From contig CBDFJR010000002.1 in the NCBI GenBank assembly GCA_965248535.1, forward strand, positions 1,664,001-1,728,000: a stretch of DNA of 64,000 nucleotides, in the 5' to 3' direction. Positions 6,138 through 63,327 of the stretch are shown here, in pieces. The number at the start of each line of letters is the position of its first letter. The stretch's first letter is position 1. Position numbers and translations under genes: made by a program. The DNA is from Phormidesmis sp. (GTDB lineage Bacteria; Cyanobacteriota; Cyanobacteriia; Leptolyngbyales; Leptolyngbyaceae). The notes under the pieces were generated by a model. That model was not told where the DNA came from and made no database searches. It saw only the letters and a list, made by a program, of their open reading frames with translations.

Positions 6138-6182
6138 ACCCTGCCCTAAATTATATCAAACATGACAATACTGTGCGTAGCA

Positions 6183-6285
6183 GCCGAACTATTGGATATA
6201 CGGAAACTTTCCGTATATCTCCCTAATTTGAGCAGATACCCCGAAGCTTTCCGTATATAGCCCCTCACTTTTCATCAGATATCTT
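6183..6285 (-). other. attI-like site 1: core GTTCGGC plus repeated palindromic boxes
   Basis: Core exactly complements R'' GCCGAAC of the downstream attC; perfect IR GATATACGGAAA-C-TTTCCGTATATC (6195-6219) and a degenerate copy 40 bp away (6235-6258). Confidence 0.55.
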
Positions 6286-6348
6286 AGAGCAACGATCGCC
6301 CCCTCTCTTCCCAAAACCCGATCGCTTCCTTCTCTTCAAAATTCAGCC

Positions 6349-6377
6349 TTCCAAAAAACAAAAAACTCTTGTACAAT
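6349..6377 (+). promoter_or_regulatory. Putative sigma70-type promoter of unit copy 1
   Basis: TTCCAA-N17-TACAAT, identical spacing in copy 3 (63232-63204). Confidence 0.6.
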
Positions 6378-6384
6378 ACACCGC

Positions 6385-6611
6385 AGTGATGGAGTTGTGC
6401 CCCGAAGTCTGATGTGGCTATCAGACTCCGAGGACTTCCATCCCTAGTTACTACCGATAACTCAGGAGGCGTTCATGATTGTACACCGTCAGCTTTGCTA
6501 TGGGATCTTGAAAGGCTGGAATCAAGATCCTGCATACAGTTTTCCCCTCAACCGAATTTCTGAGCTATCAGAGTTTTTGTCCTCTTTGAATTAATCGAGA
6601 GGACAAAAAAC
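6385..6611 (+). promoter_or_regulatory. Conserved structured RNA leader (four hairpins), copy 1
   Basis: Stems AGTCTGAT/ATCAGACT, AGTTA/TAACT, GGATCTTGA/TCAAGATCC, TTTTTGTCCTCT/AGAGGACAAAAA conserved across three copies; loops of the first two vary. Confidence 0.65.
6475..6594 (+). CDS. Unannotated 39-aa leader ORF (MIVHRQLCYGILKGWNQDPAYSFPLNRISELSEFLSSLN)
   Basis: AGGAGG 5 nt before ATG; same start, length and stop in all three copies. Confidence 0.55.
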   Translation: MIVHRQLCYGILKGWNQDPAYSFPLNRISELSEFLSSLN

Positions 6612-6983
6612 ATGGCAGTTAGGACGATCGTGCCTAGCTCGATTTCGTTCACCATTGAGTTACGTTGCTCAATCGAAAAGCGTTATCGGGTGAGTGTGAC
6701 TTTGGATTTGCAAGAGCGTTATCTCTTTGTGTCGTCTGGCATTGTTTCGGATGTTAGCGACTGCATTGAAGAGTTCGTGTCTCAACTGAGTGAAATTTCA
6801 TCCAATCAACTAGCATTGCTGAAATGGGATGGCACGAGTGATTTGACGACCGAGTATCAGATTGTTCGAGTGTTGCCCGGTTATCAAGTAGAACGATCGC
6901 TTGTGAAGTTCAACATTGTTCTGGGCGATGGTTCATTAATTCAAGTAGAGGAATTGCACAACAAAACGACGATTCAACTGTGA
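6612..6983 (+). CDS. Conserved hypothetical 123-aa protein, copy 1
   Basis: Three intact paralogs (115/123 identical to copy 2 and 107/123 to copy 3 by manual alignment), many synonymous changes, GAGGA RBS. Confidence 0.85.
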   Translation: MAVRTIVPSSISFTIELRCSIEKRYRVSVTLDLQERYLFVSSGIVSDVSDCIEEFVSQLSEISSNQLALLKWDGTSDLTTEYQIVRVLPGYQVERSLVKFNIVLGDGSLIQVEELHNKTTIQL

Positions 6984-7342
6984 TTAGGGTTGGGGAGCCG
7001 TCGATTATCTTTTGGGAATCTGTGCAGCCAGCGATCGGGCAACTTCTCGGTCTAGGTCTAATTCAAACTCTGATATTCCCCATTTTGGCGGCTCTCTAAC
7101 TCTGTAAATCTTTAGGGAATAAAGCGATCGTGTCTCCTTTAGGGCGCTAGATAATTCACCCTCTGTTGCGAAATGCCCGCAAATGGCACAAATTTTTAGG
7201 AATCAGAACACTAAGACTCATTCAGGTTGAGTCTGCTGGTGTTAAATGCCCTTGCCAAGGGTGGCTTGACCGATATCTCAATAATTCGACCCTCAGATGG
7301 ATGGTAGCTTGTGCTCTCAACGTCCATGACCATAACGGTTAG

Positions 7343-8071
7343 TCGCCTCAAGGGGTAGCGTTTCCTCTGTTTTGGCATCTATTAGACAAGCGGGGTAACT
7401 CGAACACGCAAGAGCGCTTTGATCAGTGGGTCGAGTTTTTGTGCGTCTTTGCACCCGAAGACATCGCTTTTTTGACCGCAGACCGAGAGTTTATTGGCAC
7501 CCAATGGTTTGCCTTGCTAATGGCAGAGCCTGTGACTCGCTTTCGCATCCGTATTCGCGAGTCGGAGTTCCTGTTTGATGGGCAGCAATCGCTTAAAACC
7601 ACGATTGTGTTTCAAGATTTGCAGCCTCATCAATCCAAGGTGCTGTCACGCAAACGACGGCTTTGGGGGCATTGGCTTTACTTGGCAGGATTACGACTCG
7701 AAGACGGGTCGTTGCTGGTGGTTGCCACGAACCATGAACCCTCCACTGCCATTGCTGACTATGCTCTGCGTTGGGGCATCGAAACCTTGTTTGGCTGCTT
7801 GAAAACTCGTGGCTTTTGCTTGGAGGCAACCCACCTTAAAGACCAGGAACGGCTCAAGAAGCTCATCGCTCTCTTAACCTTGGCATTTTGCTGGGCGCAT
7901 CGGGTTGGCGAATGGGTGGTGGAACGTCAGCCCATTCAAATCAAAAAGCATGGACGCAACGCCAGGAGCATCTTTCGTACCGGGTTAGATCACCTCCGCC
8001 AGATTTTACTCAACCTCGATACTCGTCAAGCGCAGTTTGTCCAAGTTCTAAAACTTTTGTCCTGTACTTAG
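7343..8071 (+). pseudogene. 5'-truncated IS4-family transposase remnant
   Basis: ADREFIG and YALRWGIETLFGCLK (YREK signature); ends ...LLSCT*; frame opens only after a stop at 7340. Confidence 0.85.
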
Positions 8072-8934: not shown

Positions 8935-9017
8935 AGCTAACGTTCCGGTTGAGCGGCAGCAGATTGACCACGACGATAGACGCAAAGACTCTCAACTGCC
9001 CGCTCCAATCGGGTTGT
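8935..9017 (-). other. attC site interrupted by the group II intron (remaining 5 bp at 11016-11020)
   Basis: Removing the intron restores GCATAAC-aacccg-ATTGGAGCGGGCAG...CTGCCGCTCAACC-ggaac-GTTAGCT (88 bp). Confidence 0.8.
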
Positions 9018-11015
9018 GTACGCCCAGCATGGGCGTGAACTAATGGGGTGAAAGTCCCCTGGAGGAGAACCAGCGCCCAAATGATCCCAAAAGATCCGAG
9101 TGGTGATCACTCCTAGCTCAAGGCAAGGGCGTTTCCGTGAGGGAAGGTCTGAAGGAAGCCAGCGGCAAACCGACGAGCCGACGAACAGAAATGTCATAGA
9201 AGGCTGAGACCCCTGGGTGAGGAGCGCACAACACAACGAAACCTCTGGTTCAAGGGGCACAGTAAATGACACGGTTGCGGCGGGACAGTTCACGGTCTTA
9301 TCTGGGGAGGTCTGTGCGGTTGCGGTCTTAAAGATCATGGGAGTCTGACTGAGGTCTCGCGGGAAACGGCGAGGGAGCCACAGAACCCTAACGTCAAAAG
9401 ACAGCGCCCTGAAGAGTAATCTCAAGGGTTCACCGTACAGAAGTCAGCAGAGTCCATAGTAGTTTCCTTGTGAAACGAAGGGACGAACATGAACGAACTA
9501 AGGAGGAGCGATGAACAACTCAGACCCATCGATGAACCCGGATGGGGGAGATGGGGTTTGGCGTTCGGACAGAGAGCCAGCCTTAGACAACCTGATGGCG
9601 CGAATCTTAGAGCGCGACAATGTTCAAGCAGCCTGGAAACGGGTGCAGTCAAACAAGGGTGCGCCCGGTAGCGACGGGATGACCTTAGAAGACTTTCCTG
9701 CCTACGCCCGCGAACATTGGCAAGAGATTCGCCAGTCCTTACTCGATGGCAGCTACCAACCACGTCCTGTACGCCGGGTAGTGATTCCCAAGCCGAGAGG
9801 CAAGGGAGAGCGGAAATTGGGGGTTCCTTGTGTCATAGACCGAGTGATCCAGCGACAAGCCATCTTACAAGTGCTCACGCCAAGGGAAGCGGAAATTGGG
9901 GGTTCCTTGTGTCATAGACCGAGTGATCCAAGCCATCTTTGCTCACGCCAATCTTTGACCCAAGCTTTTCTGAGTCAAGCTATGGCAGCCGACCCCAGCG
10001 TTCGGCTCATGGAGCAATCCAACAGGTGAAAACGATTGTAAAAGCTGGATATCGTGTTGTGGTCGATTTGGATCTGGAGAAATTCTTTGATACCGTCAAC
10101 CATGATGTTTTGATGTCTCGTGTTTCCCGGAAAGTCACTGATAAAGTGCTTTTGGGGTTAATCGGTCGTTACCTGCGAGCCGGAGTGTTGGTCGGGAACA
10201 CCGTTGAACCGACCGACTGGGGAACCCCGCAAGGGTCTCCCCTTTCACCCCTGTTGTCGAATATCCTTTTAGATGATTTAGACAAAGAGCTAGAAGCGCG
10301 AGGACATCGGTTTGTTCGTTACGTGGACGACCTGGTTATTCTGGTCAAAAGCAGACGAGCAGGGCGACGGGTGATGGCGAAAATCAGCCGTTATTTGACC
10401 CAAACCCTCAGGCTCAGAGTCAATCGGGAAAAGAGTCGAGTGGTCAAGATTGAGGATTTGAATTACTTGGGATTTACGTTCCGAGGGATTCGCATTTTCG
10501 TCTGCCAGCAAGCTCTGCAAGACTTCCAGCATCGATTGCGCGGGTTAACCTCGCGCAGTTGGGGAGTCTCAATGTCAGAGCGTTTCGTGCGCTTGAACCG
10601 ATACTTACGGGGGTGGATGAACTACTTCGGCATTTCTCAGCACTACACCCCAATCGCAGAGCTAGATGGTTGGCTCAGGCGACGCATTCGCATGTGTTAC
10701 TGGAAACAGTGGCGCAGACCGAGAACGCGCATTGCTAACTTGCTCAAGTTGGGAACCAGTAAGCGTCATGCGATTTTGACCGGCATTAGTCGCAAAGGCT
10801 TTTGGCGTTTGTCAAAGACTCTCGCAACGCAAACGGGAATGACGAATGAGTGGTTAGAACAACAGGGATTGTTATCGATTCGCCAACTCTGGATGAAAGT
10901 ACAGGGTTACGCTTAAGTGATCAGCGTTGTTTGCGCGTCTTCATGAACCGCCCATTGCGGACCCGCATGATGGGTGGTGTGGGAGGGGAGAGTTAAATGC
11001 TCTCCTCGACCCGAT
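9018..11015 (+). mobile_element. Group IIC (attC-targeting) intron
   Basis: 5' GTACGCCCAGCATGGGCG; domain V ACCGCCCATTGCGGACCCGCATGATGGGTGGT (10947-10978, CGC triad); domain VI ending CCCGAT; inserted at TTGT/TA in the attC bottom strand, opposite to cassette genes. Confidence 0.9.
9511..10916 (+). pseudogene. ltrA: Group II intron reverse transcriptase/maturase, split by an internal ~79-bp duplication
   Basis: NKGAPGSDG, RKLGVP, DLEKFFD, GTPQGSPLSPLL, YVDD, domain X GWMNYF; no endonuclease domain; two ORFs 9511-10029 and 9939-10916. Confidence 0.9.
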
Positions 11016-11291
11016 TATGCGTTGCTCGACACAACCGATCGCGCCCCAACTTCGCCAGACCGCACATCTCAAAAGACGAAGAACTCGGCATTCGCGGACG
11101 GATTTAAATCCTATGCGACCCGTCACCTCCCACTCTCAACGAAGTATCTTTGCTAAAGTCAACACCGATAAGTCGGCGCGATCGTTATAAACCACCTTAA
11201 CTTTCGCACTCACCAACCCGTTCTCAATATCGTTGATACTTAGATTAACGACAACTCTAAAAAACCGTGTTGACAGCTTGTCGGGCTGGCG

Positions 11292-11450
11292 GTCTAACTA
11301 CTATTTCTGCCGTTTGAACTCCTATCAAACAGGATAAATGCCTCTCTCAGAGAAATTATGCTGTATGCAAACCGGATAACTCCCATTTTTTTAGGAATTA
11401 TCCTGAATTCCCACAGGATAACTCTCCGATTTCGGGTAATTATACGGAAT
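11292..11450 (-). other. attI-like site 2: core GTTAGAC plus 42-bp periodic palindromic boxes
   Basis: GTTRRRY core at 11298-11292; TTATNCNG at 11356/11398/11440 and GGATAA at 11332/11374/11416. Confidence 0.5.
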
Positions 11451-11656
11451 GGCGCTCAGACTTCTCGATTCTAGGGGAGCCGTGAGTAAATTGTCTCGTT
11501 CCGATGAATCAGTCATGGCGCTGAGTCGATCGCATCCCTGCCGTTGCTCGACTGGAACATAAATCAGGGAGAAGTTACGATCGCCCCCCTCTCTTCCCAA
11601 AACCCGATCGCTTCCTTCTCTTCAAAATTCAGCATTCCAAAAAACAAAAAACTCTT

Positions 11657-12916
11657 GGGCACCTCGAAAAATTTGCCAAGAGGAGTCTTAACGTGAGACA
11701 AGTGTGAGATCATAGTTATAGAGCAGTGATGGGGCAATTGCAATGACACAGCCTGGATTTTGGGATTGGGAAACGCGCCAAGATAAGCTGAACCAGAAGC
11801 AAGACTTACTGGTGCGACTCAATGAGATTGTCCCCTGGGAAACTTTTCGCCCCTTGCTCGAACCCATTCATGACAAACCGCGCAAGAGTAATGCTGGACG
11901 CAAGCCGATGGATGTGATTGTGATGTTTAAGCTGCTGGTGTTGCAACAGTTGTACAACATTAGTGATGAAGCCTTGGAGTATCAAGTGAGTGACCGCTTA
12001 TCCTTCATGCAGTTTCTCGATTTTGGGTTAGCAGATGAGGTTCCAGATGTAACAACGGTATGGTTGTTCCGTAAGCAGTTAACAGAGCAAGCATTAATTG
12101 AACCATTGTTTGAGCAATTCGATGAGTATTTGATTCAGCAAGGCTACGCAGCTCAAGGAGGACAAATTGTCGATGCTACATTGATTCCCGTTCCCAAGCA
12201 GCACAACAGCAAGGATGAGAATCAACAGATTAAGCAAGGAGAGATTCCCCCATCGTGGCAAGACAACCCGCATCAACGTTCTCAGAAAGATAGCGATGCT
12301 CGATGGACGAAAAAGGGGGGTAAGAGCTACTTCGGCTACAAAGATCACATCAGCATTGATGCCCAACATGGGTTGATTCGTCAGTATGCTGTGACCGATG
12401 CCTCGGTTCATGATTCTCAAGTTTTGGGTCAACTCCTCGATGACGACAATGAGAGCGACAAGATTTGGGCAGATAGTGCTTACCGCGCTGAAGCAATTGA
12501 GGAAACGTTGAAGTTGATGCAGTTCGATAGTCAGATTCATGAGCGGGGATATCGCAACCGCCCGTTAACGGAAGAACAGAAGCAGTCTAATCGCACTAAG
12601 TCCACCACGCGCGTTAAAGTCGAGCATGTGTTTGGGTGTTGGGTGATGCAGATGGGTGGCAAACTGCTGCGTTCGATTGGCATTCAGCGGGCAACGGCAC
12701 AATTGGGATTGAAGAACTTGACCTACAACTTGTTGCGGTACACCTTCTTGGAAACGAAAGCAGTCGGTTAAGAAGTGGGAGCAGGAGTGATCTTGAATGG
12801 AGCCTGGATGAATCAATATTGCTCAGGTGAATGAGGGAGAAGCGATAGGCTTACATAGCTCTCTTCAGTCTCATTTGAGATCCTGATTCGCTAAAAATCA
12901 ATTAATCGAGGTGCCC
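11657..12916 (+). mobile_element. Complete IS5-family insertion sequence (1260 bp)
   Basis: Terminal IRs GGGCACCTCGAAAAATT / GGGCACCTCGATTAATT (15/17); 4-bp target duplication TCTT confirmed by the empty site in copies 1 and 3. Confidence 0.95.
11743..12771 (+). CDS. IS5-family transposase
   Basis: GRKP, DRLSF..F, PD.TT.W.FR, IVDATLI, ADSAY, R.KVEHVFG. Confidence 0.95.
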   Translation: MTQPGFWDWETRQDKLNQKQDLLVRLNEIVPWETFRPLLEPIHDKPRKSNAGRKPMDVIVMFKLLVLQQLYNISDEALEYQVSDRLSFMQFLDFGLADEVPDVTTVWLFRKQLTEQALIEPLFEQFDEYLIQQGYAAQGGQIVDATLIPVPKQHNSKDENQQIKQGEIPPSWQDNPHQRSQKDSDARWTKKGGKSYFGYKDHISIDAQHGLIRQYAVTDASVHDSQVLGQLLDDDNESDKIWADSAYRAEAIEETLKLMQFDSQIHERGYRNRPLTEEQKQSNRTKSTTRVKVEHVFGCWVMQMGGKLLRSIGIQRATAQLGLKNLTYNLLRYTFLETKAVG

Positions 12917-13026
12917 TCTTGTACAATACACCGCAGTGATGGAGTTGTGCCCCGAAGTCTGATGTACCAGATCAGAACTCCGAGGACTTCCATCCCTAGT
13001 TAGCGTTCATAACTCAGGAGGCGTTC

Positions 13027-13146
13027 ATGATTGTACACCGTCGGCTTTGCTATGGGATCTTGAAAGGCTGGAATCAAGATCCTGCATACAGGTTTTACCC
13101 CAACCCAATGTCTGAGAGATCCGTGTTTTTGTCCTCTTTGAATTAA
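13027..13146 (+). CDS. 39-aa leader ORF, copy 2 (MIVHRRLCYGILKGWNQDPAYRFYPNPMSERSVFLSSLN)
   Basis: AGGAGG RBS; same frame and length as the other copies. Confidence 0.5.
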   Translation: MIVHRRLCYGILKGWNQDPAYRFYPNPMSERSVFLSSLN

Positions 13147-13163
13147 TCGAGAGGACAAAAACT

Positions 13164-13535
13164 ATGGCAGTTAGGACGATCGTTCCTAGCTCGATTTCGT
13201 TCACCATTGAGTTGCGTTGCTCAATCGAAAAGCGTTATCGGGTGAGTGTGGTTTTAGATTTACAAGAGCGTTATCTCTTCATGCCCTCTGGCATTGTCTC
13301 GGATGTTAGCGACAGCATTGAAGAGTTTGTGTCTCAACTGAGTGAAATCTCGTCTAATCAACTAGCATTTCTAAAATGGGATGGCACGAGTGATTTGACA
13401 ACCGAGTATCAGATTGTTCGAGTGTTGCCCGGTTATCAAGTAGAACGATCGCTTGTGAAGTTCAACATTGTTCTGGGGAGTGGTTCATTAATTCAAGTAG
13501 AGGAGGTGCCCAACAAAACCACCATCCAACTCTAG
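13164..13535 (+). CDS. Conserved hypothetical 123-aa protein, copy 2
   Basis: Paralog of 6612-6983 and 62597-62968. Confidence 0.85.
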   Translation: MAVRTIVPSSISFTIELRCSIEKRYRVSVVLDLQERYLFMPSGIVSDVSDSIEEFVSQLSEISSNQLAFLKWDGTSDLTTEYQIVRVLPGYQVERSLVKFNIVLGSGSLIQVEEVPNKTTIQL

Positions 13536-13649
13536 AACAGTTGGGGTTAGGGAGTCGATTGTTCTTTAATGGATCGTGAAACAACCTGTTTGATCAACGC
13601 ACTTGCACCCAAAGCGGGTTCATCACTGGTTCCTTTATGGTCGCCCGGC

Positions 13650-13952
13650 TCCCTAACGGAAGACACGATCGTCAACCATACACACAACAAACTACGGCAT
13701 CGGGCACCTGGAATGCAGGTTTCACCCTTCAGTAAAAGATTTGCGGCTGCCGAAACTGCGGCGACCCAAGAGCGAGAGCGGCAAATTTTGCTGCCCTACC
13801 CAAGAGGATTGGGGAATCTGGTCAATTGGCCGTGCTGCCTCTATGGGACAGGACTGTCGCTGCGGGACTTGCAAGAAGCGTTATATTTTCTGATTAGGTC
13901 ATGTTTTGTCGCGCAGTGCCCTGAATCAAGTCACTCTTGCCGTTCAAAATGA
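13650..13952 (+). pseudogene. Degenerate transposase fragment, probably IS256 family
   Basis: LYGTGLSLRDLQEAL resembles the IS256 YxxGxSxR helix; surrounding sequence appears frameshifted. Confidence 0.45.
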
Positions 13953-58781: not shown

Positions 58782-60713
58782 TTGAACCAGCAATATTGGA
58801 GGCGACTGAACCAGCAAGCAAAGATTTGGCGATCGGGAGCATTGCCCGGATTTGTGGTGATTGCCTGCGTGGTGATTGCCCGTCTGACTGGCTCTCTACA
58901 GGTTTTAGAGTGGATGGCCTTTGATCAAGTGCTGCGATCGCGCCCGGTTGAGTCGGTAGAATCGCAAATTGTGATCGTCGGGATTAATGAGAACGACATC
59001 AAAACGATTGGCAAATATCCCATTCCCGATCGAGAGTTAGCAGCCCTACTGCAAAGGCTGCAAAGCTATCACCCAAGAGCGATCGGGTTAGATATCTTTC
59101 GCGATGTGACAACCGGATCAAGTCGGGCAGAACTAGCCGAAGTCTTCAGCAACAGTTCCAATCTAGTCGGCATTGAAATGGCGTTAAGTCCAAATATTGC
59201 ACTGACGGTAAAACCGCCGCCAGAGTTGCCGCCTGAGCGGATTGGTCTTGCAGATGTTGTCATTGACCCAGATGGTAAATTGCGGCGCAGTTTGTTAGCA
59301 AGCAAAGTCGATGATAAAACAAAGTATTCACTTTCATTGTTGTTGGCAGCGATGTATCTGCGATTAGCGCAAAGCACAACTCCGAAGGAACCGCAAGGAA
59401 TCGCCCTTCAGCAGGGAAGTCGCGCCAGTGATCCGATTCAGTTTGGGTCGGTGGTGTTGCCTCGGTTTCACAAGAACACGGGAAGCTATGTCAACGCGAA
59501 AGCAGGGGGAAATCAAGTCTTACTAAATTTTCGCAGTCATTCGCAACCGTTTACGATCGTCTCGTTGACCGACGTTTTAACCCATCAAGTGCAGCCAAGT
59601 TTGATCCGCGATCGCATTGTTCTGATTGGCATGACGGCTGCCAGCGTCAATGATACCTTTATGACATCTGCAACAAAAGGCACATTGTTATCGAACGATT
59701 TAAATGACTCAGAACAATATCAATTTCTCTATGGAGTCGAGTATCAAGCCCATGCAACTAGTCAACTGATCAATGCGGTTCTCAATCATAGACCTCTGAT
59801 CCGCACTTGGCTAGAAGGTTGGGAATATGTTTGGATTCTAACTTGGGGATTGTTTGGCATTGCGTTGGGATTGATGCTGCAATCTCCCTGGAAAACACTT
59901 TTAAGTCTTGCGGTTAGCAGTAGCTGCCTGATATTAGTGTGCAATGGCTTGATGATTTTGGGCTGGTGGATTCCGCTTGTTCCTGCCTTGCTGACCTTGG
60001 GTGCGGCTGGGTTGACGACTTCACTCTTTGATCGTGACTCTAGAGTTTTATTAGAGCAGCGTAGTCTAACGTTAAAATGCACCTATGACGCGGTTCACAA
60101 TGGGCCCTTGCAAACACTTGCAGCTATTCTGAGAAGTCTGGATGAAACGCCGTTGCGATCGCAGTTGGAATCGCTAAATCAGGAGTTGCGATCGGTTTAT
60201 GAATCGATGAAACAAGAGTTACTGTTCGGTGAAAATCGCTATATTTATACCCCGATTCCTGAACTGTTGTATCAAATCTATGAAGATACCTTGCAGCGAA
60301 ATCTGCCAGGGTTCTCCTCGATCAAGACTTATGTTCCCCCTGATTTCAACTCGCTTAAAGACTGCTCTTTGACTCCAGAACAAAAACAAGGACTGTGTAT
60401 CTTTCTGCAAGAAGCCCTTTGTAATGTGGGTAAACACGCGATCGCGGCCAGTCGTCTGGATGTTGTCTGTACTCACCAACATGATGAATGGAGCTTACAA
60501 ATTCTCGATAACGGTGTTCAGGTCAAATCTAGCCAGTCTCGTAGTGGACGAGGGACTGATCAGGCGAGAGAATTGGCGCGATCGCTGGGTGGAAAGTTTG
60601 ATCGGCGATCGCGGTCACCGCAAGGAGTTGCGTGTGAAGTGACGTGGCGAGATTCTAAACCGTGGCGGCAACGCCTTTTTCACCTATTTGGGTACTGGTC
60701 AGCGTCTCCTTAA
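58782..60713 (+). CDS. CHASE2 sensor with C-terminal histidine-kinase-like domain
   Basis: IGLDIFRD, DPDG..RR, GVEYQA, 3 TM, HNGPLQ, EALCNV.KHA. Confidence 0.85.
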   Translation: MNQQYWRRLNQQAKIWRSGALPGFVVIACVVIARLTGSLQVLEWMAFDQVLRSRPVESVESQIVIVGINENDIKTIGKYPIPDRELAALLQRLQSYHPRAIGLDIFRDVTTGSSRAELAEVFSNSSNLVGIEMALSPNIALTVKPPPELPPERIGLADVVIDPDGKLRRSLLASKVDDKTKYSLSLLLAAMYLRLAQSTTPKEPQGIALQQGSRASDPIQFGSVVLPRFHKNTGSYVNAKAGGNQVLLNFRSHSQPFTIVSLTDVLTHQVQPSLIRDRIVLIGMTAASVNDTFMTSATKGTLLSNDLNDSEQYQFLYGVEYQAHATSQLINAVLNHRPLIRTWLEGWEYVWILTWGLFGIALGLMLQSPWKTLLSLAVSSSCLILVCNGLMILGWWIPLVPALLTLGAAGLTTSLFDRDSRVLLEQRSLTLKCTYDAVHNGPLQTLAAILRSLDETPLRSQLESLNQELRSVYESMKQELLFGENRYIYTPIPELLYQIYEDTLQRNLPGFSSIKTYVPPDFNSLKDCSLTPEQKQGLCIFLQEALCNVGKHAIAASRLDVVCTHQHDEWSLQILDNGVQVKSSQSRSGRGTDQARELARSLGGKFDRRSRSPQGVACEVTWRDSKPWRQRLFHLFGYWSASP

Positions 60714-60751
60714 CGCGGTTTAATGGAGTATTCCTCTATTTGCCCACAGCC

Positions 60752-61513
60752 ATGAATCATTTAACGATTAGCGCTAGGCGCAACTCTAAAGGAGCCGCAG
60801 CTTGCCAAAAACAGACAGCAACTAGACTAATATCAGGCATCTTGTTGGCAATGTCGCTGATGCCAATTGCAGCATTAGCAGACGATGATAAAGCGCCTCC
60901 TAGTGGCAGATCTGCTGGAGGTAGGGGCTGTGGAACCACCACACAAATTGCTCAATCTAATGTGCCTAGTTTGATCTTACTTTCTCCTCAAGAATCTTCT
61001 AAACAAGCGGTTTCGACTCGCCCCACTTTTGCCTGGTTTGTGCGCGATGCTGCCCCGGTATTAATGGAATTTAGACTTTATGCACAGGACGCAAACAACC
61101 GCTATCAATTGGTTAAAGAGGTTAAAGACGATCAGTTCAAAACATCTCCTGGCATTATGGTGTTGTCACTGGCTCAAACGACTCCTGAGCTTGCGATCGG
61201 GCGATATCGCTGGCAGGTGGTGTTGATCTGCGATCGCAGCCATCCCTCTGGCAATCTCTTTGCTGAATCTGAGCTAGAAGTGGTTCCATTGCCTGCTGAT
61301 TTGAAGACTCGGTTAGAAAAGACCCACGATCGCGCCTCTCAAGCATCGCTCTATGCTCAAGCAGATTTCTGGTATGACGCGCTGGGAACTGCGATCGGTT
61401 CATCTAATACTGGGCTGAAAGATCCACAATTGTCTCTTCTCAACAAAATGATGCTGAACAACACGGAGCAGCAGTTATTACAAAATAGTGCGATTCATCC
61501 GATACAACGGTAG
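60752..61513 (+). CDS. DUF928 family protein
   Basis: GGRGC, RPTFAWFV, YRWQV, WYDAL. Confidence 0.8.
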   Translation: MNHLTISARRNSKGAAACQKQTATRLISGILLAMSLMPIAALADDDKAPPSGRSAGGRGCGTTTQIAQSNVPSLILLSPQESSKQAVSTRPTFAWFVRDAAPVLMEFRLYAQDANNRYQLVKEVKDDQFKTSPGIMVLSLAQTTPELAIGRYRWQVVLICDRSHPSGNLFAESELEVVPLPADLKTRLEKTHDRASQASLYAQADFWYDALGTAIGSSNTGLKDPQLSLLNKMMLNNTEQQLLQNSAIHPIQR

Positions 61514-61617: not shown

Positions 61618-61962
61618 CTACCCCGCTGGTTCTTCGGGTAATAGTGGTGCGATTATTGCCAATAATCTAGGAATATTATCTTGAGTTACGTCCCAGACAA
61701 CATCAAAGTCAATTCGATCGTATTGATGGATGATGATGTCTCGCATTCCGGCGATATCTTTCCAGGGAATTTCAGGATGTTGGTTTCGATAGTGACTAGA
61801 TAATCGTTTTGTTGCCTCTCCCATAATTTCAATCTGATATAAGATTGCAGAATGGCGCATCACGTCTGTTTCAAGCTCAGATCGGTTTAGACCTTGAGTA
61901 AAAGTCAGAACACGCTGCCCCGCAAGAAAAATGTCCATTACAGATGCCTTATCTCTGGACAT
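61618..61962 (-). CDS. HEPN/DUF86 toxin (HepT-like)
   Basis: GEA.K, IPW..IAGMRDIIIHQY (RX4HXY). Confidence 0.9.
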   Translation of the reverse strand: MSRDKASVMDIFLAGQRVLTFTQGLNRSELETDVMRHSAILYQIEIMGEATKRLSSHYRNQHPEIPWKDIAGMRDIIIHQYDRIDFDVVWDVTQDNIPRLLAIIAPLLPEEPAG

Positions 61963-62305
61963 AGATTAACCTCGCCGTCCCTAGAATTTCTTTTCGGCGA
62001 ATCCAGTTTTCGCTCTGCCCGATCGATTTTTTTGTGAGCAAGTCTACGCTTCGCATAAACAACGCTGCCAATTCTCGCTTCATTCTGACCAGTTCTAGTA
62101 ATCCACAGACTGCATCAGGATCAACTTGCACCATGACATCGATATCGCTATCGGGGCGAAAATCATCCCGCAGCACAGAGCCAAATAGATAGAATTCCTG
62201 AACGCTCCAACGCTGACAGAATTGAGCAATCTCTGCTTGGGGCAGTTCGATCGCAATTGAGTCAGACAATAACTGAAATCCTGCAACTTCAACTTTTTTC
62301 ATCAC
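61949..62305 (-). CDS. Minimal nucleotidyltransferase antitoxin (MntA-like)
   Basis: FGSVLRDDFRPDSDID (GSX10DXD); overlaps the HEPN gene. Confidence 0.9.
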   Translation of the reverse strand: MMKKVEVAGFQLLSDSIAIELPQAEIAQFCQRWSVQEFYLFGSVLRDDFRPDSDIDVMVQVDPDAVCGLLELVRMKRELAALFMRSVDLLTKKSIGQSENWIRRKEILGTARLIYVQR

Positions 62306-62382: not shown

Positions 62383-62511
62383 CGATCGCGCCTCTCAATC
62401 ATTCCTCTAGAATCAGACAAATTTTTGGTATGACGCGCTGGGAACTGCGATCGATACAGCACTGAGCAATCGTTATTGCACGACAGTATGATTCATTGTC
62501 TGCAACAATGA
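62383..62511 (+). pseudogene. Degenerate duplicate of the DUF928 gene 3' end
   Basis: 28-bp exact match 62426-62453 vs 61370-61397; tail TEQSLLHDSMIHCLQQ* vs TEQQLLQNSAIHPIQR*. Confidence 0.8.
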
Positions 62512-62596
62512 TGTTATATCTATTGCAACAATGAATACATATAGTTAGGGAGCCTTTCCCAAACGGGAATACTGATGACTCCCTAACCCCAACTTC

Positions 62597-62968
62597 CTAG
62601 AGTTGAATCGTAGTTTTGTTGTGCAACTCCTCCACTTGAATTAAGGAACCCTCACCCAGAACAATGTTGAACTTCATTAAAGAGCGTTCAATTTGATAAC
62701 CGGGCAACACTCGAACAACTTGGTACTCTGTGGTCAAATCACTGGTGCCATCCCATTTGAGAAAGGCCAGTTGATTAGACGCAATCTCACTCAGTTCTGA
62801 GACGAACTCTTCAATGCGATCGCCAACATTCGGAAGAATGCCAGACAGTACAAAAAGATAACGCTCTTGCAAATCTAATCTCACACTGACCCGATAACGT
62901 TTCTCCGTTGAGCATCGCAACTCAACGGTGAACGAAATCGAGCTAGGCACGATCGTCCTAACTGCCAT
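62597..62968 (-). CDS. Conserved hypothetical 123-aa protein, copy 3
   Basis: Paralog of 6612-6983. Confidence 0.85.
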   Translation of the reverse strand: MAVRTIVPSSISFTVELRCSTEKRYRVSVRLDLQERYLFVLSGILPNVGDRIEEFVSELSEIASNQLAFLKWDGTSDLTTEYQVVRVLPGYQIERSLMKFNIVLGEGSLIQVEELHNKTTIQL

Positions 62969-62985
62969 GGTTTTTGTCCTCTCGG

Positions 62986-63105
62986 TTAATTAAAAGAGGA
63001 CAAAAACACGGATCTCTCAGACATTGGGTTGGGGGGAAATCTGTATGCAGGATCTTGATTCCAGCCTTTCAAGATCCCATAGCAAAGCCGACGGTGTACA
63101 ATCAT
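62986..63105 (-). CDS. 39-aa leader ORF, copy 3 (MIVHRRLCYGILKGWNQDPAYRFPPNPMSERSVFLSSFN)
   Basis: AGGAGG RBS; conserved frame and stop. Confidence 0.5.
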   Translation of the reverse strand: MIVHRRLCYGILKGWNQDPAYRFPPNPMSERSVFLSSFN

Positions 63106-63327
63106 GAACGCCTCCTGAGTTACTTGCGCTAACTAGGGATGGAAGTCCTCGGAGTCTGATCTGGTAAATCAGGCTTCGGGGCATAACTCCATCACTGCGG
63201 TGTATTGTACAAGAGTTTTTTGTTTTTTGGAAGGCTGAGTTTTTTGGCAGGAGCGATCGTGGTTTGGTTCCGTCTGCTCTAAGCAAGAAGTTACATCTTA
63301 ATAAATCCACAATCCTAAGAAGGTTAG

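Follow-up and report, generated by a model that had tools for sequence, protein, structure and literature searches.

The window analysed here, a stretch of 64,000 nucleotides (nt) of the Phormidesmis sp. contig CBDFJR010000002.1 (positions 1,664,001 to 1,728,000 of assembly GCA_965248535.1), carries three copies of a unit of about 700 bp, which comprises a putative promoter, a folded leader, a 39-codon open reading frame (ORF) and an ORF for a protein of 123 amino acids (aa). The main new result is the link of this unit to integron integrases: in nine of the 11 loci of the genus that carry the integrase gene, intI, the unit lies immediately 3′ of it on the same strand. We cautiously favour the reading that the unit, itself a complete small operon, forms the conserved right-hand part of an element of ~2 kb built around an IntI-type tyrosine recombinase. 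Nothing in print on the module was found in the literature; the works retrieved for integrons and cyanobacteria were general integron surveys, and those retrieved for Phormidesmis and integrons were unrelated.

The first integrase was seen in a related genome (G003, locus L052), where a 320-aa ORF ends just before the unit and scores 464.5 bits against the IntI-specific profile TIGR02249. All five proteins scored against this profile reached 440–484 bits at a cut-off of 265 bits, among them two from the genome that holds the window (466 and 468 bits; a 5.03-Mb assembly of five contigs, hereafter G000) and two from G004 (440 and 484 bits). Of the 11 intI loci, eight contain a full-length gene, one a frameshifted gene and two a partial gene. 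The two G004 loci are counted among the nine with an adjoining unit; their contigs end inside the unit. Exceptions to the pairing are a partial gene in G005 and the second intI of G000 (C2:161466–162425), which has no adjoining unit. The first G000 gene (C2:1131584–1132540, minus strand) ends 5 nt before a unit with its ORF at C2:1130920–1131288. Between genomes, homology of the intI loci is confined to intI and the unit and stops at the right end of the unit, with unrelated flanks. The window holds no intact intI, only a stub of 19 codons at 11504–11560. An initial annotation of this DNA had reported neither a transposase nor terminal inverted repeats, which holds for the unit proper; the element is larger than was seen then and appears to be built around an integron integrase. 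The gene neighbourhoods, in which the unit recurs directly 3′ of intI and intI remnants lie directly 5′ of window copies 1 and 2, agree with the earlier suggestion of a recombination-associated factor.

The upstream regions of the two G000 intI genes are 97% identical over 198 bp, although the genes themselves are only ~67% identical. Both upstream regions begin with GCGGCATAAC, the opposite strand of which starts with GTTCAAC, 6 nt and GTTATGC and looks like the simple site of an attI. At the corresponding place the two intI loci of G002 have GGCGGCATAAC and TGCGGCTAAC. Four to five tandem repeats of ~42 bp were observed between the attI-like site and intI in G000 (G000:C2, 5′ of intI; L066, 2540–2700) and also in L092 and L069. 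They contain the palindrome ATATACGGAAA/TTTCCGTATAT, two of them survive at window positions 6196–6260, and they may be binding sites of the integrase or of a regulator.

The unit copies of the window, and the insertion sequence (IS) that splits one of them, are laid out as follows.

6292–7018, plus strand: unit copy 1, with putative promoter, leader, 39-codon ORF, 123-aa ORF and tail; terminal hairpin without its second arm
11585–11657, plus strand: 5′ piece of unit copy 2, reaching the −35 region and CTCTTG
11658–12915, plus strand: IS5-like IS splitting copy 2, with a DDE_Tnp_1 and DUF772 transposase at 11743–12771
12916–13560, plus strand: remainder of unit copy 2, with −10 box (12922–12927), 39-codon ORF (13027–13146), 123-aa ORF (13164–13535) and only the first arm of the terminal hairpin
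62544–63260, minus strand: unit copy 3, a short form, with −10 box (63209–63204), 39-codon ORF (63105–62986), 123-aa ORF (62968–62597) and complete terminal hairpin

The 123-aa ORF is intact in all three copies and differs from copy 1 by 8 residues in copy 2 and by 16 in copy 3, exactly as first counted (29 and 52 nt differences in 369 nt). The conserved stretch 5′ of its ATG, noted earlier as about 300 bp, spans ~275–295 bp. What had been described as a G-rich tail is GTTAGGGAG, the first arm of a terminal hairpin. Copies 1 and 2 lack the second arm, CTCCCTAAC, whereas the hairpin of copy 3 is complete (GTTAGGGAG at 62587–62579 to CTCCCTAAC at 62552–62544). The IS in copy 2 sits between the −35 and −10 boxes, has the ends GGCACCTCGA and TCGAGGTGCC and is bordered by CTCTTG on either side. 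To the left, the element stretches beyond the unit, as far as 11295 for copy 2 and ~6196 for copy 1. No transposase was found in the unit proper and no inverted repeat links the two ends, which share CTAAC(TA) in direct orientation.

Seventeen copies of the unit, at 83–92% nucleotide identity, were found in G000, which bears out the earlier expectation of more copies genome-wide. The 123-aa ORF is open in 16 of them; 15 copies have the standard length, one has lost its stop (124 aa) and one is frameshifted. Because the copies are this diverged they are not assembly duplicates, and both junctions of copy 1 are bridged by contigs of two public runs, in which the summed depth within the unit is ~20–60 times that of the flanks. 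Of 41 genomes from relatives, G000 and all seven other genomes of the genus Phormidesmis had the protein, with 4–21 matches each, and none of the 33 genomes from 33 other genera did. A class-wide profile scan of 401 genomes detected it in three (G000, G001 and G119), that is in two of 169 genera; in the family of G119 it occurs in two of 57 genomes, both of them, and the only two, of the genus g82. One search gave 418 homologues among 426 candidates, and among the 120 listed every given source name was a Phormidesmis ‘hypothetical protein’. In a search of 1.84 billion proteins only 12 cluster representatives reached E ≤ 0.001. No related loci were found for the distant protein hits P0123 (in genome contigs) and P0124 (in metagenome contigs).

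The 17 G000 copies are monophyletic in a tree of 45 units, the other 28 of which come from six further genomes. Either amplification within this lineage or concerted evolution could account for this clade, which together with the copy number supports the earlier description of the unit as dispersing. One orthologous locus in three species (L050, L062 and L064; G001:C17, G006:C8 and G003:C13) shows the unit decaying differently in each: one copy is near-full with a 148-bp insertion, and the two others are 3′ remnants of unequal length. Some insertions are therefore older than speciation and eroded afterwards.

Seventeen copies fall into several forms with respect to intI. Three window segments next to the units are relevant here.

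6196–6290, plus strand: intI-upstream remnant before copy 1, with ATATACGGAAA/TTTCCGTATAT repeats and the intI 5′ leader; intI ORF absent
~11016–11294, plus strand: segment K, between a group II intron and the next segment; its start at 11016 was estimated by eye from the intron end
11295–11584, plus strand: module M2 before copy 2, with the intI upstream region and the first 19 codons of intI (ATG at 11504, remnant to 11560), followed by a deletion

M2 (290 bp) has its left edge, TAAC, at 11295–11298 with GTC before it. It aligns end to end with an intact intI locus of another species, G004:C1009, over the upstream region and the first codons (MNQPLRLVDQIRAVARLEH...), and this homology ends at GGAACAT. 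M2 precedes eight G000 copies, window copy 2 among them, in eight unrelated contexts. All eight have the same deletion junction, GGAACAT followed directly by AAATCAGG, and the same left edge, TAACTA(C/T)TATTTC. One junction and one left edge in eight copies indicate that the deletion arose once and that the deleted element, ~1 kb long, was copied as a block; overall, the element seems to have spread chiefly in forms without the integrase. The presumed termini of the M2 form are ...GGCTCCCTAA and CTACTATTTC.... The possibility that M2 is the degraded upstream region of a resident G000 intI was dropped; there is no significant similarity between them, and M2 matches a different type of intI locus.

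In window copy 1 and in the copy at C5:798283, repeats and 5′ leader of the other intI type, not that of M2, stand directly before the unit and the intI ORF is gone; window positions 6232–6282 match the intI-upstream region at G000:C2:1132596–1132646 (86%, E 2e-9) and at C5:797851–797901. One further G000 copy retains an intact intI in front. The remaining six, including window copy 3, consist of the unit alone, and at least one of these keeps the last bases of intI, GCTTGATCGC.

At the left edge of M2, TAAC together with the three flanking bases in front of it reads GTCTAAC (three times), ACCTAAC, GGCTAAC, AGCTAAC, GTGTAAC and GTATAAC; of the eight copies, four match RYYYAAC perfectly and four have one mismatch. 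The reverse complement of this motif, GTTRRRY, is the integron core. Segment K adjoins M2 at two loci and the intI-upstream region at one more, and all three junctions have the form ...GGCGG(Y)(M)/TAAC. On the right, the unit ends with CTCCCTAAC, which is followed by T in six of the nine copies that have both hairpin arms (TA in four, TT in two); M2 forms thus have a CTAAC at either end, in direct orientation. In related genomes a repeat, here called X, is fused to the unit ORF exactly between G and TT in six of six cases (AAG/TTGTTCG becoming AGA/TTGTTCG). Repeat X (L052 2007–2460, L053, L054, L056, L057 and L063; G001 and G003) is ~450 bp long, has iteron-like repeats of 21 bp and a promoter-like TAGAAT, has the final 130 nt of the unit ORF and the unit tail behind it in every case, and either adjoins full units or stands alone.

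IntI1 is reported to insert cassettes at genomic sites that share only a GWT consensus and to cleave at AAC (bioRxiv 10.1101/2022.09.11.507474). The edges described above fit such IntI chemistry, with cleavage at AAC/GTT and off-target insertion; since GTT triplets are so abundant, these site assignments are leads, not proof. In the scheme that we favour, the full element would consist of a left-end site, intI, the unit and the right-end hairpin, and would be moved by IntI-type recombination at sites containing GTT/AAC. The integrase-less forms would be non-autonomous derivatives mobilized in trans, and shorter forms like window copy 3 would be further truncated. It is the block-copied deletion derivative that suggests mobility, and the adjacency and the edges that point to IntI as the recombinase.

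Could the unit instead be a canonical integron gene cassette, an ORF with its attC site, that was scattered by off-target insertion? The association with IntI and the GTT/AAC at the edges agree with this, and off-target insertion of cassettes by IntI1 is documented (bioRxiv 10.1101/2022.09.11.507474). Several features argue against it. The unit appears to have its own promoter, in which a −35-like hexamer stands 17 nt before a conserved −10 box, whereas cassettes are usually promoterless, and its place is 3′ of intI and not past the attI-like side. The 3′ end of the unit folds into two hairpins (z −3.4 and −3.9); in the terminal one (GTTAGGGAG...CTCCCTAAC) GTTAGGG comes before CCCTAAC, with GTT...AAC on the outside, which is the reverse of the R″...R′ order of attC. 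The left end of M2 gave no significant fold (z −0.2 to −0.9). A scan of the 5-Mb genome for perfectly complementary RYYYAAC...GTTRRRY pairs with a stable DNA fold, which is crude and not an attC covariance model, returned three matches at two loci, with no attC arrays and nothing near intI or a unit. On these three grounds a canonical attC in the unit or M2 was rejected, and we regard the cassette explanation as very improbable. The only attC-like palindrome from the scan (GTCTAAC...GTTAGAC, 86 nt, −23 kcal/mol on both strands) lies at G000:C2:2107268–2107353.

The most conserved part of the unit reaches from the −10 box to codon 22 of the short ORF, and its conservation exceeds even that of the non-synonymous sites of the 123-aa ORF. 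In copy 1 this region and the ORF behind it are arranged as follows.

6349–6377, plus strand: putative promoter (TTCCAA, 17 nt, TACAAT)
6378–6474, plus strand: 5′ leader, with closing stem GATGGAG/CTTCCATC, hairpin 1 (6404–6429) and hairpin 2 (~6443–6468)
6475–6594, plus strand: 39-codon ORF (MIVHRQLCYGILKGWNQDPAY...), its stop TAA (6592–6594) in the loop of the next hairpin
6574–6609, plus strand: 12-bp hairpin TTTTTGTCCTCT...AGAGGACAAAAA, whose 3′ arm contains the GAGAGGA of the 123-aa ORF and thus buries its Shine–Dalgarno (SD) sequence
6612–6983, plus strand: 123-aa ORF, encoding an orphan acidic protein

The −10 box reads TACAAT, TAGAAT or, once, TAAAAT in all 38 aligned Phormidesmis leaders; a generic promoter and terminator scan of 6150–7150 made no call, the putative promoter included. 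Hairpin 2 overlaps the AGGAGG of the short ORF with its 3′ arm, and the short ORF contains a perfect 9-bp hairpin, as read from RNAalifold and from the sequence itself. Among the 45 copies the stems are near-invariant and the loops of hairpins 1 and 2 vary freely. This free variation means that mutation had time to act, and thus that the invariant remainder is held by selection. In the SD-burying hairpin one pair (columns 237/248) is G-C in 25 and A-U in nine Phormidesmis sequences. To judge from these substitution patterns, the leader is a real, selected RNA. Rfam at gathering threshold found only two group II intron domains in the whole window and nothing for the unit, and at E up to 1 over 10800–13700 only a chance microRNA match.

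All 17 G000 copies have a short ORF of 39 codons, as do 39 of the 42 units, among the 45 examined, that match an SD–ATG pattern (the other three have 37, 12 and 40 codons). The gap between the two adjacent small ORFs, an arrangement also typical of type II toxin–antitoxin (TA) systems, is 17 nt in all 17 copies. Codons 1–22 are almost invariant at the nucleotide level; the second half shows mostly non-synonymous changes and neither stops nor frameshifts. This pattern fits a frame that would have to be read and a product that may be only partly constrained. The stop of the short ORF lies in the loop of the very hairpin whose 3′ arm carries the SD of the main ORF, and translational coupling is thereby implied. 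Expression of the 123-aa protein would then require translation of the short ORF: ribosomes finishing it would melt the hairpin and expose the second SD, and the ribosome-binding site of the short ORF itself would be gated by leader hairpin 2.

Four leaders from the distant genus g82 (L082, L089, L090 and L091) have TTGACA, 16 nt and TATACT, followed by the same helices in different sequences, a short ORF beginning MILRQLC, a hairpin that covers the second SD and has the short-ORF stop in its loop, and a 124-aa ORF. The N-terminus MI(V/L)..R(Q/R)LC of the short ORF is thus kept in this genus. Among the four leaders six predicted pairs are changed on both sides and are still paired, and two of these belong to a long-range helix between the 5′ end and the start region of the main ORF. 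When the two genera were analysed jointly with RNAalifold, misalignment of the hairpins by MAFFT led to a poor consensus, and the within-genus fold and reading of the sequences were relied on. On this comparative evidence the g82 homologues settle the reality of the leader architecture. The tight regulation proposed in the initial annotation is supported by this conserved, structured leader with its sequestered SD and a short-ORF stop within the hairpin loop.

Selection on the 123-aa protein was estimated from non-synonymous (dN) and synonymous (dS) divergence. Pairwise Nei–Gojobori comparison of the 16 open G000 copies (120 pairs) gave a mean dN of 0.055 and a mean dS of 0.445, a ratio of 0.12. 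By parsimony on a tree of 35 intact ORFs, recognized by pattern among the 45 units of seven genomes with broken copies left out, dN/dS was 0.16 on terminal and 0.13 on internal branches for G000, and 0.21 and 0.15, respectively, for the other genomes. The low terminal-branch ratio shows that selection still acts on resident copies, not only on the lineages that founded new ones. The earlier claim of a selected gene is borne out by these ratios, which are not near 1.

The 123-aa protein is an orphan with a confidently predicted fold and under strong selection. Its AlphaFold model (pLDDT 87, pTM 0.80) consists of three strands, a 30-residue helix (42–71) and three further strands. No convincing neighbour was found with Foldseek against PDB (best E 0.05) or with VIA-align against 48,161 chains (best Z 4.5), the best match in BFVD had E 0.07 and the ESM Atlas gave no usable match; such absence does not demonstrate a new fold. 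Searches of Pfam, NCBIfam and PADLOC with the three 123-aa proteins and the 39-aa peptide returned only sub-threshold noise. A confident match to a characterized family was thus not obtained, and the toxin or defence gene suggested at first, for which Pfam and PADLOC gave nothing above threshold, gained no support either way.

Since selection persists on each copy and the two ORFs are strictly coupled, an addiction-like or an accessory role is most likely, with no preference between these; in the element the protein would act as a maintenance or accessory factor encoded by it. A more specific explanation, compatible with the element that we favour, is a pair of the TA or abortive-infection kind, in which a basic 39-aa peptide and an acidic 123-aa protein work together, the coupling ensures that the second is made with the first, and addiction stabilizes the element or the surrounding DNA. 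Both small ORFs always occur together, at fixed spacing and with the coupling hairpin, resident copies are under purifying selection, and the module has its own putative promoter; cassettes in which a TA pair has its own promoter are frequent in sedentary chromosomal integrons. Against this stand the searches just described, which matched no toxin, antitoxin or defence family, and the second half of the short ORF, which varies freely at the protein level. Cross-protection among 17 near-identical copies would also weaken addiction. We consider this pair a doubtful though serious candidate.

A number of observations weigh against a mobile element driven by IntI, in addition to the reversed terminal hairpin, the unfolded left end of M2 and the attC scan. 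The distant g82 homologue is single-copy and lies among ordinary genes without an adjoining intI, so that belonging to an integron is not an intrinsic property of the gene. G000 lacks an intact intI of the M2 type: both of its intI genes have the other upstream type, and M2 forms may thus be fossils. Neither an excised circle nor an empty site or a polymorphic insertion was seen, relatives being too diverged for precise empty sites; when the flanks of copy 3 and of C5:2447589 were compared with five related genomes, the downstream flank was conserved and the intergenic DNA could not be aligned, which gave no precise site. Values of dS among the G000 copies range from 0.12 to 1.18, i.e. the copies are old, and their monophyly could also stem from gene conversion. 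The low terminal-branch dN/dS argues that each resident copy is kept by selection, which non-autonomous elements do not usually show and which would also suit a host-beneficial or an addictive gene. Finally, the promoter and the coupling are read from sequence alone.

Part of these observations would be expected of an ordinary lineage-specific paralogous family, in which duplication was unspecific, the edges mark the end of constraint and the adjacency of intI is inherited synteny. Old, diverged copies with dS up to 1.18, continuing selection on terminal branches and the single-copy homologue among ordinary genes in another family all agree with it, as does the failure to find terminal inverted repeats, target duplications or a canonical attC. 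This explanation does not account for eight copies in unrelated flanks that have in common a 290-bp non-coding block, one intI deletion junction and one left edge; the conserved dead intI stub makes constraint alone insufficient. The blocks of intI and unit in non-homologous flanks across genomes and the monophyly of the G000 copies also speak against it, and we hold a plain paralogous family to be unlikely.

The element that we favour can be extended to a self-mobilizing integron integrase, a proposal that we put forward only tentatively. Such an element of ~2 kb, with an attI-like left end, intI, the two-ORF module under leader-peptide control and the right-end hairpin, would excise and reinsert at minimal GTT/AAC sites, spawn integrase-less derivatives to 10–20 copies per genome and depend on the orphan 123-aa protein, which would be a maintenance or accessory factor of a new kind.

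Other mobile DNA surrounds the window copies, and the region from 6 to 13.5 kb is a patchwork of a transposase fragment, an intron and the IS5-like IS. The DDE transposase fragment (7439–8071, plus strand) covers only profile positions 78–199 of PF01609 and begins 420 bp 3′ of copy 1. The group II intron (~8985–11015, plus strand, limits read from the sequence) matches Rfam domains D1–D4 at 9131–9296 and 9405–9483, and its reverse transcriptase/maturase frame is split into 9511–10029 and 9939–10916, probably by a frameshift. The genome has ~8 related copies of it, and segment K with the M2 edge follows directly on its right. Immediately 3′ of copy 3, overlapping genes for a HepT-like ribonuclease (PF01934) and a nucleotidyltransferase (PF01909), a known TA type, occupy 61618–62305 on the minus strand. 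A 76-nt direct repeat (84% identity) is found at 61327–61402, as the 3′ end of a DUF928 gene (60662–61513), and at 62383–62458, as an orphan piece between the TA pair and copy 3. A short repeat of ~37 nt just 5′ of copy 3 (63283–63319) has ~30 occurrences in two related genomes and is also found 5′ of the unit at G000 C5:2345284.

Coupling by a translated leader ORF is known from hok/mok mRNA and from erm leader peptides. The product described here differs, being a soluble acidic 123-aa protein instead of a small membrane toxin or a resistance methylase, and the leader is without a demonstrated antisense RNA or stalling signal. Common to these systems and, as far as the sequences indicate, to the unit are an upstream short ORF whose translation would expose the downstream ribosome-binding site, a heavily folded mRNA and, in g82, a helix that joins the 5′ end to the start region of the main ORF and includes two compensatory pairs. 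Regardless of mobility, the leader of ~250 nt, with its coupled short ORF, constitutes a new RNA control element that is conserved in two cyanobacterial families.

The relation between full and deleted forms resembles that of autonomous and non-autonomous pairs among insertion sequences and miniature inverted-repeat transposable elements. In both there is a full form with a recombinase, together with more numerous deleted forms that have one junction and the same ends; G000 has eight internally deleted forms and none or one full form. Here, by contrast, terminal inverted repeats and a clear target-site duplication are lacking, the recombinase is a tyrosine recombinase and the derivatives retain a selected protein-coding gene. 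Insertion of cassettes by IntI at attG sites, as described in the preprint (bioRxiv 10.1101/2022.09.11.507474), needs little beyond GWT/AAC, and the edges here are TAAC after RYY-like triplets and a cut between G and TT. The donor in that work is the folded attC of a cassette, whereas here no canonical attC was seen and intI or its stub would be part of what is moved.

Integrons are seen as cassette-capturing platforms that do not move on their own, and none is known to do so; the role of the many cassette-less integrases, termed In0, is a puzzle. In PMC4889954, In0 denotes integrases without attC sites nearby, and the intI loci described here would count among them. Like In0 and sedentary chromosomal integrons, these loci have a bona fide IntI, a simple-site-like sequence 5′ of intI and no attC found nearby. 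They differ in the fixed two-ORF module with its putative promoter, which lies directly 3′ of intI in nine of 11 loci, in the different places that the whole block occupies in each genome and in the multiplication of integrase-deleted copies. Throughout the genus, integron integrases are welded to a fixed, elaborately regulated two-gene module, and the integrase-deleted block reaches double-digit copy numbers. If the integrase drives this amplification, this would be an instance from nature in which IntI serves a small mobile element as its recombinase, and would offer a ready experimental system with defined ends, a defined recombinase and a candidate accessory protein.

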